DNA of 64,000 nucleotides from Candidatus Spyradenecus sp. Lineage in GTDB: Bacteria > Verrucomicrobiota > Verrucomicrobiia > Opitutales > UBA953. Below are positions 2,793 through 3,430 of this stretch, piece after piece. Location of the stretch: positions 67,317-131,316 of the forward strand of contig JAZSKX010000001.1 in the NCBI GenBank assembly GCA_045535075.1. Direction: 5' to 3'. The notes below the pieces were generated by a model that did not search any database, was not told where the DNA came from, and saw only the letters and a list, made by a program, of their open reading frames with translations. A program made the translations under genes and the position numbers. Positions within the stretch are counted from its first letter, which is position 1; the number at the start of each line of letters is the position of its first letter.

Positions 2793-3103
2793 TCGCGGCG
2801 GCAGATTGCGGAAATTTCCGACCGGATGATCGAATGTCTCGGTCGTATTGAATTTAACAAACTCCGATTAATTTAATTTTCTCGCTAACGCTCGACTTTG
2901 AGTAAGGCGCTATCCGAGCAGAAATTGATTTAATCGGAGTTTGTTTTTCTTCGGGAATTCTCGTTCCCGCGATTGGCTCTCCCGTAGAGTCAGCGAATTT
3001 CGCCAAGTAGGAATCTTTACGGCCGGATTTTGCGTCGTTCGTTTTTTTTGCGGCGGATAAAGAACACATATTTTTCTGTATATACGATTCTCGTTTTTGT
3101 TTG

Positions 3104-3133
3104 GAAAGCTCCCGCATCTCAGCGGGAGCTTTT
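3104..3133 (-). terminator. Intrinsic terminator for the small-peptide mRNA (copy 1)
   Basis: gaaagctcccgc-atctca-gcgggagctttt, immediately after the peptide stop codon on the minus strand. Confidence 0.7.
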
Positions 3134-3136
3134 ACC

Positions 3137-3199
3137 TTATTTTTTAATTGACTCCAAAAGTAGGAGAATCAAAATAAGAACCACTATTATGGATTCCAT
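3137..3199 (-). CDS. 20-aa hydrophobic peptide MESIIVVLILILLLLESIKK, candidate type I toxin (copy 1)
   Basis: Manual translation; SD AGAAAGGA upstream; paralog at 13414..13476 with only conservative substitutions. Confidence 0.8.
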   Translation of the reverse strand: MESIIVVLILILLLLESIKK

Positions 3200-3253
3200 C
3201 ACGGGATTCCTTTCTAAGCCGCGAGAGTTGCCGCTCTCGCGGTTCTTTGTTTT
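3182..3253 (+). ncRNA. Candidate antisense antitoxin RNA (copy 1), ends approximate
   Basis: TTGACT-16nt-CAAAAT (3148-3175) within the peptide ORF on the opposite strand; hairpin gccgcgagag-ttgccg-ctctcgcggt followed by tctttgtttt; would cover the SD and start codon. Confidence 0.55.
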
Positions 3254-3430
3254 AGCCCCGAGCCCGCTCTAACCAATCGCGCGGGCATTGCCGCGATCGG
3301 TTGTTGAAAAGTGTCCGAAAATCCCGGCAAAAAAGGCAAGCGTTTTTTCGGAAAACAAAAGAAAAACAACGCCCGCAAAGGCTTCAATCCTCTCGCATTG
3401 TTTCAGGTAAGGTGTTTTTATGAGGCACAT

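Follow-up and report, generated by a model that had tools for sequence, protein, structure and literature searches.

A genus-restricted family of candidate type I toxin-antitoxin modules in Verrucomicrobiota, with a predicted antitoxin promoter inside the toxin codons

The 64,000-nucleotide stretch of Candidatus Spyradenecus sp. DNA studied here (the window, C11:67317-131316 of G000, a genome of 18 contigs) contains two copies of a small module in which an open reading frame (ORF) for a hydrophobic peptide of 20 residues is faced, on the opposite strand, by a predicted antisense RNA whose promoter would lie within the codons of the peptide. In our judgement, this module works as a toxin-antitoxin system of type I with a probability of roughly 60%, and we regard it as a well-supported candidate for a new family. 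Comparison of the copies demonstrates coding constraint on the ORF, three covarying hairpins with strand preferences, conservation of the antisense promoter and terminator, and a patchy distribution with decaying copies, and these observations carry the argument. We also put at a little above even the chance that this is the first type I family of the Planctomycetes-Verrucomicrobia-Chlamydiae (PVC) superphylum (Verrucomicrobiota, Opitutales), restricted to one genus, in active turnover, divided into two subfamilies and with its antitoxin promoter placed in the toxin codons.

Copy 1, taken as the unit of homology, extends over 3090..3302 on the minus strand (DNA matches in other genomes cover 3090-3297, and the covariance-model match at G000:C11:70409-70577 corresponds to window positions 3093-3261). 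An earlier examination of this DNA, which we call the sequence-only reading, had pointed to a candidate toxin-antitoxin module at this place, and the observation was borne out, every feature that it noted being present in the sequence of copy 1. The ORF, of 20 codons and a stop, lies at 3137..3199 on the minus strand (ATG 3199-3197, TAA 3139-3137) and encodes the hydrophobic peptide MESIIVVLILILLLLESIKK, the candidate toxin. Its Shine-Dalgarno site, AGAAAGGA at 3215-3208 of the same strand, stands 8 nt 5' of the ATG, at a position where homologs carry either the purine-rich GGAAAGGA or GGAGG. The sense RNA would begin with a 5' stem-loop (H1, 3271..3302, minus strand), recognized by folding, covariation and strand preference, and would form a second hairpin (H2, 3219..3242) just upstream of the Shine-Dalgarno site. 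H2 is a feature of both strands, and on the plus strand it is the predicted stem of the antisense terminator. A scan called this hairpin at 3217-3244, followed by TTCTTTGTTTT, as terminator-like on the plus strand, and the T-rich tail TTCTTTGTTTTA occupies 3243..3254 of this antisense strand, which agrees with the hairpin and T-rich tail previously placed at 3218-3253. A third hairpin, H3 (3104..3133, minus strand), would end the sense RNA as a terminator or a 3' stabilizer with a short U tail. On the plus strand, the predicted antisense promoter sits inside the ORF at 3148..3175, with a -35 TTGACT at 3148-3153 on the E-S-I codons, a 16-nt spacer and a -10 CAAAAT at 3170-3175. From the positions of promoter and terminator, an antisense RNA of about 71 nt, the candidate antitoxin, is predicted at 3183..3253 on the plus strand; it would contain the complement of codons 1-6, of the start codon and of the Shine-Dalgarno site, followed by H2 and the U tail.

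Further copies, which the sequence-only reading had suggested looking for by tblastn and covariance-model search, do exist: the module, a unit of about 200 nt, occurs in 18 intact copies in 10 of the 19 genomes of one genus, with 1 to 4 copies per genome and the highest number, up to four, in G011. Seventeen intact copies were tabulated, the 18th (L003) being identical to L002. The tabulated set comprises 13 copies of subfamily A, whose peptides end in ...LLESIKK, and four of the divergent subfamily B, revealed by the covariance model, whose peptides end in ...LILVSR.

Judged by its pattern of substitution, the ORF of the module is a coding gene under purifying selection. The 13 unique ORFs of subfamily A have 20 codons throughout and no indel, although their flanks are rich in indels, and the four ORFs of subfamily B have 20 or 21 codons. 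Among the subfamily A ORFs, the variable columns at codon positions 1, 2 and 3 number 12, 6 and 16 of 19, respectively, and the ratio of non-synonymous to synonymous differences (pN/pS) is 0.157 in the main group (55 pairs) and 0.252 overall (78 pairs). Between copies 1 and 2 of the window, 7.0 synonymous changes over 14.3 sites compare with 3.0 non-synonymous changes over 45.7 sites. The stop codon switches among TAA, TAG and TGA while its place is fixed, and the Shine-Dalgarno site is conserved among copies. The peptide of copy 1 has a grand average of hydropathy (GRAVY) of 1.96 and 12 aliphatic residues in a row. The type I class is defined by a small (<60 aa) hydrophobic protein encoded on a standalone mRNA, and what we find here is a 20-aa peptide flanked by its own hairpins and unlinked to its neighbours. 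A different explanation would see in the module a non-coding structured repeat, be it a pair of small RNAs or a mobile element of miniature size, in which the ORF is untranslated. In its favour, the module is short (about 200 nt), occurs in several copies and is found at some syntenic sites but missing from others, and an exact look-up of ten module peptides in 15 billion proteins retrieved none of them, though this is expected for ORFs of 20 residues. Against a non-coding repeat stand the codon periodicity, a pN/pS of 0.16-0.25 in homologs that keep the reading frame (as the sequence-only reading had anticipated), an indel-free ORF within indel-rich flanks, a stop fixed in place while its letters vary, and a Shine-Dalgarno site at the right distance. 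We consider this explanation very improbable.

The structure of the RNA provides the second line of evidence. When applied to 13 loci, RNAalifold placed three hairpins, H1, H2 and H3, outside the ORF. In the consensus structure 92.6% of the cells are paired, against 39-49% with slid partners, and changes on both sides are seen in 17 of 35 pairs, against 3-9; the observed covariation values were matched in 0 of 500 shuffles. Both sides have changed in 7 of the 10 pairs of H1, in 5 of the 6 pairs of H2 (where 98.7% of the cells are paired) and in 4 of the 8 pairs of H3, and the structured leader described in the sequence-only reading is thus made of hairpins that covary across homologs. The folds of the sense RNA are also more stable than expected, with z values of -4.2 and -6.0 for copies 1 and 2. 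Importantly for the argument, the three hairpins differ in the strand that they favour. Of the 13 loci, 10 fold H1 and 11 fold H3 more stably on the sense strand (mean differences of -2.8 and -3.7 kcal/mol, respectively), while 10 fold H2 more stably on the antisense strand (mean difference of +2.0 kcal/mol). The G-U pairs of H2 fall on the antisense strand in 11 of the 13 loci, and on the sense strand only in the decayed copy L013. Because of these strand preferences, and because the T-rich tract is found only on the antisense strand, we assign H1 and H3 to the sense RNA, and H2 looks as though it has been selected as the intrinsic terminator of an antisense RNA. The claim that the ORF has its own terminator at 3104-3133 stands in part: the hairpin is there and its G-U pairs favour the peptide strand, but the scan rates it terminator-like on the plus strand only, and on the peptide strand it is followed only by UUUCC. 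The CUUUCC after H3 was also considered as an anti-Shine-Dalgarno sequence and dropped, as it is not kept across copies (alignment read by eye).

The antisense promoter cannot be argued from copy 1 in isolation. Promoter-like matches near copy 1 occur at 2 per kb, against 0.8 +/- 0.9 in shuffles, and a single match is not beyond chance, so that the case rests on the comparison between copies. Its conservation over the 17 intact homologous copies is beyond chance. The -35 hexamer is TTGACT in 12, TTGACA in four and TTGAAA in one; the spacer is of 16 nt in all 17; and the -10 hexamer is CAAAAT in nine, CAGAAT in six, CAGCAT in one and CAACAT in one. Downstream of the -10, all 17 copies show about 7 nt, then an A, then a stretch of about 35 nt whose complement holds the Shine-Dalgarno site, the AUG and the first codons, and then H2 with its tail; the T-rich tail that follows H2 on the antisense strand is present in 15 of the 17 (by eye). 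The RNA predicted at 3183-3253 folds at -28.2 kcal/mol (z -4.8). Sigma-70-type promoters are plausible in this genome, since the motif TTGAC...nAnnnT is about three times commoner upstream of genes than within them (42 per 629 regions against 24 per 1067).

The codons that overlie the promoter offer a further insight into how it is maintained. The two hexamers lie over codons 9-10 and 16-18 of the ORF, and among the 11 unique ORFs of the main group the third codon positions are invariant at 4 of 4 places under the hexamers and at 1 of 15 elsewhere (Fisher p = 0.0013); when all 13 unique ORFs are counted, the figures are 3 of 4 and 0 of 15 (p = 0.004). The frozen codons are not explained by codon preference, because the Ser codon under the hexamer is always TCA, the rarest Ser codon of the genome (6.2%), and the invariant Glu codon is GAG, the minor one (28.9%). 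The core formed by TCA and the following A is kept while the encoded neighbours vary (ESI, LSI, VSR), and in L019 a change from Glu to Leu makes the hexamer the consensus TTGACA. The TTGACT-16-CAAAAT promoter reported in the sequence-only reading, with its -35 on E-S-I, is therefore conserved even where the encoded residues change. As the promoter of the putative antitoxin lies within the codons of the putative toxin, the same 28 nt would be under selection for both protein and promoter.

Several observations weigh against a toxin-antitoxin function, and we bring them together here. The aliphatic run of the peptide counts only 12 residues, which is short for a membrane span. On the sense side, a promoter scan detected no sigma-70-like site upstream of H1 in copy 1, where the -10 position reads CGGACA in place of the TATGAT and CATGAT of its closest relatives (L005 and L009, respectively); because of this missing promoter and degenerate-looking -10, copy 1 may be weakly or poorly expressed; its antisense unit is intact. 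A conserved sense promoter could not be identified across the copies either, and hardly any U tail follows H3 in the sense orientation. On the antisense side, the -10 is weak (it has C and not T at its first position, and lacks a TG extension), and L010 and L019, which diverge most within subfamily A, have poor T tails. The counts and p-values given above overstate the independence of the observations, since every copy stems from the same genus and shares descent with the others. Codons 9 and 16, which supply two of the four frozen third positions, also take part in predicted intra-ORF helices, and mRNA structure could thus explain part of the synonymous constraint. Finally, the sequencing data consist of contigs from three metatranscriptome runs and one probable DNA run, unstranded and at a depth of 2-10; over window positions 2000-14500 the RNA-library contigs give no cover of 3137-3260 or 13259-13675, and are uninformative on transcription.

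The helices around codons 9 and 16, the weak -10 hexamer and the lack of RNA-library cover over the loci would all suit a model with no antisense RNA at all, in which a hydrophobic-peptide gene has a structured leader, H2 acts on the sense strand only, and TTGAC and CAnnAT are frozen on account of mRNA structure, of a site bound by a protein or of signals for translation. However, the rarest Ser codon TCA and the G of codon 10 are frozen and yet unpaired in the predicted fold, and in L019 the inner helix is broken while the hexamer is improved to TTGACA. The greater stability of H2 on the antisense strand, with a T-rich tract only there, is likewise hard to reconcile with a hairpin acting on the sense strand. 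A gene of this kind devoid of antisense RNA is, in our view, quite unlikely.

Based on these results, the proposed type I system would operate as follows. Transcription of the sense strand would give a structured RNA of about 200 nt that carries, in order, H1, H2, the Shine-Dalgarno site, the 20-codon ORF and H3. Its translation would yield a very hydrophobic membrane peptide, the candidate toxin. From the promoter in codons 9-18, the opposite strand would produce an antisense transcript some 70 nt long, which would match codons 1-6, the start codon and the Shine-Dalgarno site with perfect complementarity and end at H2 and a U tail. Pairing of the two RNAs could then block ribosome binding, lead to cleavage of the duplex, or both, and the peptide would be kept off. 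Both transcripts, the translation and toxicity of the peptide and its repression by the antisense RNA are what we infer from the anatomy of the copies.

The second copy of the window was found by tblastn of G000, with its ORF at 13414-13476 on the plus strand encoding MESLILVLILILLILESIKK. The whole of copy 2 spans 13303..13515 (plus strand; 173.5 bits with the covariance model) and comprises H1 at 13303-13330, H2 at 13365-13390, a Shine-Dalgarno site at about 13399-13407, the ORF, and H3 at 13482-13515; a plausible sense TATTAAT stands immediately 5' of H1. Its predicted antisense unit (13353..13465, minus strand) has a -35 TTGACT at 13465-13460, a -10 CAAAAT at 13443-13438, a predicted start at about 13430 and a terminator at 13392-13363 with the tail CTTTTTTGTT. 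In a scan of 13150-13700, the site inside the ORF was the sole promoter-like match, and a terminator-like site was called on the minus strand. G000 thus holds three intact modules, two of which are in the window; the third, found by the covariance model at G000:C12:56222-56394 (minus strand), belongs to subfamily B, with a 21-aa peptide ending in ...LILVSR, the same H1, H2 and H3, and an antisense promoter of TTGAAA, 16 nt and CAGAAT.

Different approaches agree in confining the module to one genus. The peptide of copy 1, searched against 61 related genomes, had matches in 10, all of the same genus, and a profile of 11 peptides, searched against 137 genomes of the family, gave confident matches in that genus and in 0 of 118 genomes of four other genera. 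Of the weak profile matches, those in G003 and G017 fall within long ORFs and were attributed to chance, and the one in G009 (L015) is a remnant at best. The covariance model R1, which represents the H2-to-H3 region in 175 positions, had strong matches (E <= 1e-14) in 10 of the 19 genomes of the genus and nothing convincing in the 118 other genomes of the family or in 145 further genomes of the order, where two partial matches to H3 only and four weak ones were not inspected. The weak matches that were inspected beyond the genus were rejected: L054 amounts to no more than a terminator, L062 is a tRNA with a terminator, and L063 lacks the hairpins. With a degenerate DNA pattern for the C-terminal half of the peptide, one genome per species over 185,579 species gave 14 matches, of which three are chance and 11 belong to the same family; these 11 are labelled Opitutales, Opitutia or Verrucomicrobia bacterium, plus two conflicting labels. 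In a metagenome collection, the pattern for the peptide end gave six matches, all chance in AT-rich DNA, and in viral contigs the patterns of both subfamilies gave none.

Within the genus, the module appears to come and go. The copies are found in at least five syntenic groups, at unrelated positions and with no conserved neighbour gene. In the window, copy 1 lies between the gene of a PEP-CTERM protein and that of an unknown membrane protein, which is followed by a glycoside hydrolase family 2 (GH2) gene, and copy 2 lies between the genes of a major facilitator superfamily (MFS) transporter and an Fe-alcohol dehydrogenase. The closest relatives of copy 1, in G011 and G015, have 78-80% identity over about 3090-3297 and stand in other contexts, and there are genomes that share a neighbour gene of copy 1 and do not have the module at that place. 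At about 4277 we observed a break in the similarity to other genomes: G016, G007 and G010 match 4277-4400 at 96-98% and match 1998-4276 only through paralogs of 66-68%, while the more distant G013 and G002 match the gene of 229 aa at 76-77%. These matches place copy 1 in a segment not common to the closest relatives, with the breakpoint inside the start of the GH2 gene. The site of copy 2 is occupied in G016 and G007 and empty in G011, where the MFS and dehydrogenase genes are about 22 nt apart; about 335 bp holding copy 2 (13251..13585, plus strand; boundaries drawn by eye from a pairwise alignment) are missing from this syntenic intergenic region. At the boundary so drawn, no target duplication and no terminal inverted repeats were seen, which is a further point against the mobile-element form of the non-coding explanation. 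Decay is also visible. In G014:C174:19324-20303 (L052), four modules follow each other in tandem over about 1 kb: an intact one, a frameshifted one and two decayed remnants in which H2 and the TTGTCAAT core survive; elsewhere, L013 has lost both ATG and stop, and L058 is decayed. Multiple or tandem copies with a patchy distribution are typical of the type I class, without strictly defining it, and this is the pattern found here.

This distribution bears on two further explanations. In the first, the peptide would have a harmless accessory or regulatory role in the membrane, and the cis-antisense RNA would tune its level. The coding and antisense evidence fits this equally well, and many small hydrophobic proteins of bacteria are non-toxic. 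However, presence in only 10 of 19 genomes of the genus, paralogs at unrelated positions, decayed copies in a tandem array and a syntenic site without the module are what one typically sees with addictive or selfish modules, and not with a housekeeping partner protein; nor is any neighbour gene conserved. We hold a benign role to be unlikely, while still giving it real weight. In the second, the ORF would be a leader peptide, or attenuator, of a downstream gene. Copy 2 is indeed upstream of, and co-directional with, the Fe-alcohol dehydrogenase gene, and there is a sub-threshold resemblance to the Phe and His leaders of Rfam (20.9 bits for Phe and 22.3 for His, where the cut-offs are 55 and 49). 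But copy 1 and its neighbour gene converge, other copies have other neighbours, G011 has the dehydrogenase gene without the module, and the peptide shows no run of a regulatory amino acid beyond generic Leu and Ile; we give this explanation almost no credence. The toxin-antitoxin interpretation is the one that we retain.

Other repeated elements were observed in and around the window. Just past the 3' end of copy 1, and not part of it, the interval 2856-2976 forms a long hairpin (about 90 nt) that is nearly perfect and, after it, a small one of the form GGGAA...TTCCC (z -5.6 on the plus strand, -5.2 on the minus strand). At least five other copies are found in G000 (on C5, C16 and C1) at 74-81% identity, one RNA-library contig (X4) covers 2859-3114, and the sequence could be either a small RNA present in several copies or a miniature inverted-repeat element. 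Terminators with common stem letters (GCGTTCCCG ... CGGGAACGC, then a T run) occur at 6919-6956, 13208-13245, 16355-16392, 34986-35023, 52920-52957 and other places. RNA and DNA contigs pile up at such a terminator, with a depth of 225 at 13225 in X3, and we see in them a genome-wide stereotyped terminator or a repetitive extragenic palindromic (REP)-like repeat. Lastly, 2703-2782, at the end of the ORF 1998-2792 and encoding its PEP-CTERM sorting signal, has dozens of matches of 75-83% in every genome of the genus, as expected from an ordinary large family of PEP-CTERM proteins.

The module matched no described family. In Rfam (E up to 10) it had no family, and no antitoxin RNA family was listed for it; in Pfam (E up to 10) it had only PsbT, whose 10.6 bits fall short of the cut-off of 22.4; and in NCBIfam it had nothing. 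Full-text literature searches, judged by titles and the starts of abstracts, found no report of a type I system in Verrucomicrobiota, in line with the sequence-only reading, which knew of no such family there. In its passages on distribution, a study of 2025 describes type I systems as known only from Proteobacteria, Firmicutes and Tenericutes, with one cyanobacterial case proposed (PMC12390103). If our interpretation is correct, a family in gut Verrucomicrobiota would extend the known range of the class, whose narrow phylum range is suspected to be a search artefact. The module also supplies a covariance model (R1) and 18 natural variants for study. It represents a clean case of overlapping constraint, with a promoter in an ORF of 20 codons, and is small enough for complete synthesis and expression testing.

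The comparison with known systems helps to place this family. The Hok and Ldr toxins are longer than the 20 residues of the module peptide, and no leader ORF was seen in the module. For architecture, we rely on the class definitions in T1TAdb, here and below as given in those parts of the article that describe the individual classes (PMC8594479). Hok/Sok and Ldr/Rdl resemble the module in having an antisense RNA that lies inside the mRNA, acts at its 5' side and regulates how a small membrane toxin is translated, and differ from it in that their antisense RNA is located 5' of the toxin ORF with no overlap (PMC8594479). MsoT1/MsoA1 of Microcystis aeruginosa, as presented in the sections of PMC12390103 on that locus, is likewise a candidate type I system recognized by its anatomy outside the three known phyla; it is an unrelated locus and has partial experimental support, whereas the module is known here from sequence alone.

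Ibs/Sib of Escherichia coli comes closer in its product, a very short and nearly pure aliphatic peptide, and in its multi-copy chromosomal loci. The Ibs peptides have about 19-20 residues. The module had no Sib match in Rfam and no Ibs toxin match in Pfam (E up to 10), and these databases hold a Sib RNA model and an Ibs toxin model, respectively. Both systems have a cis-encoded antisense RNA within the mRNA, that of the module by prediction; the key distinction is that Sib spans the whole ibs ORF (PMC8594479), whereas the predicted antisense RNA of the module covers only codons 1-6 and the leader, because its promoter is at codons 9-18. The likeness to Ibs/Sib advanced in the sequence-only reading was judged to hold for peptide size only.

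The likeness to AapA/IsoA of Helicobacter pylori, for which the same reading had pointed to an antisense promoter within the ORF, fits the anatomy of the module, as do a highly structured toxin mRNA and chromosomal, multi-copy loci. The AapA peptide has about 30 residues, and that of the module, with 20, differs in length. The two systems also belong to different phyla, the module gives no sign of activation by 3' processing, and the Rfam and Pfam scans, which involve no direct comparison with AapA/IsoA sequences, detected no sequence relationship. In AapA/IsoA, the antisense RNA lies wholly inside the toxin mRNA, over the 5' part of the ORF and the translation start (PMC8594479), and by prediction that of the module does the same over the 5' part of its ORF. 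We therefore see in this module a probable new family of an already known kind of system, a kind not described before in Verrucomicrobiota.

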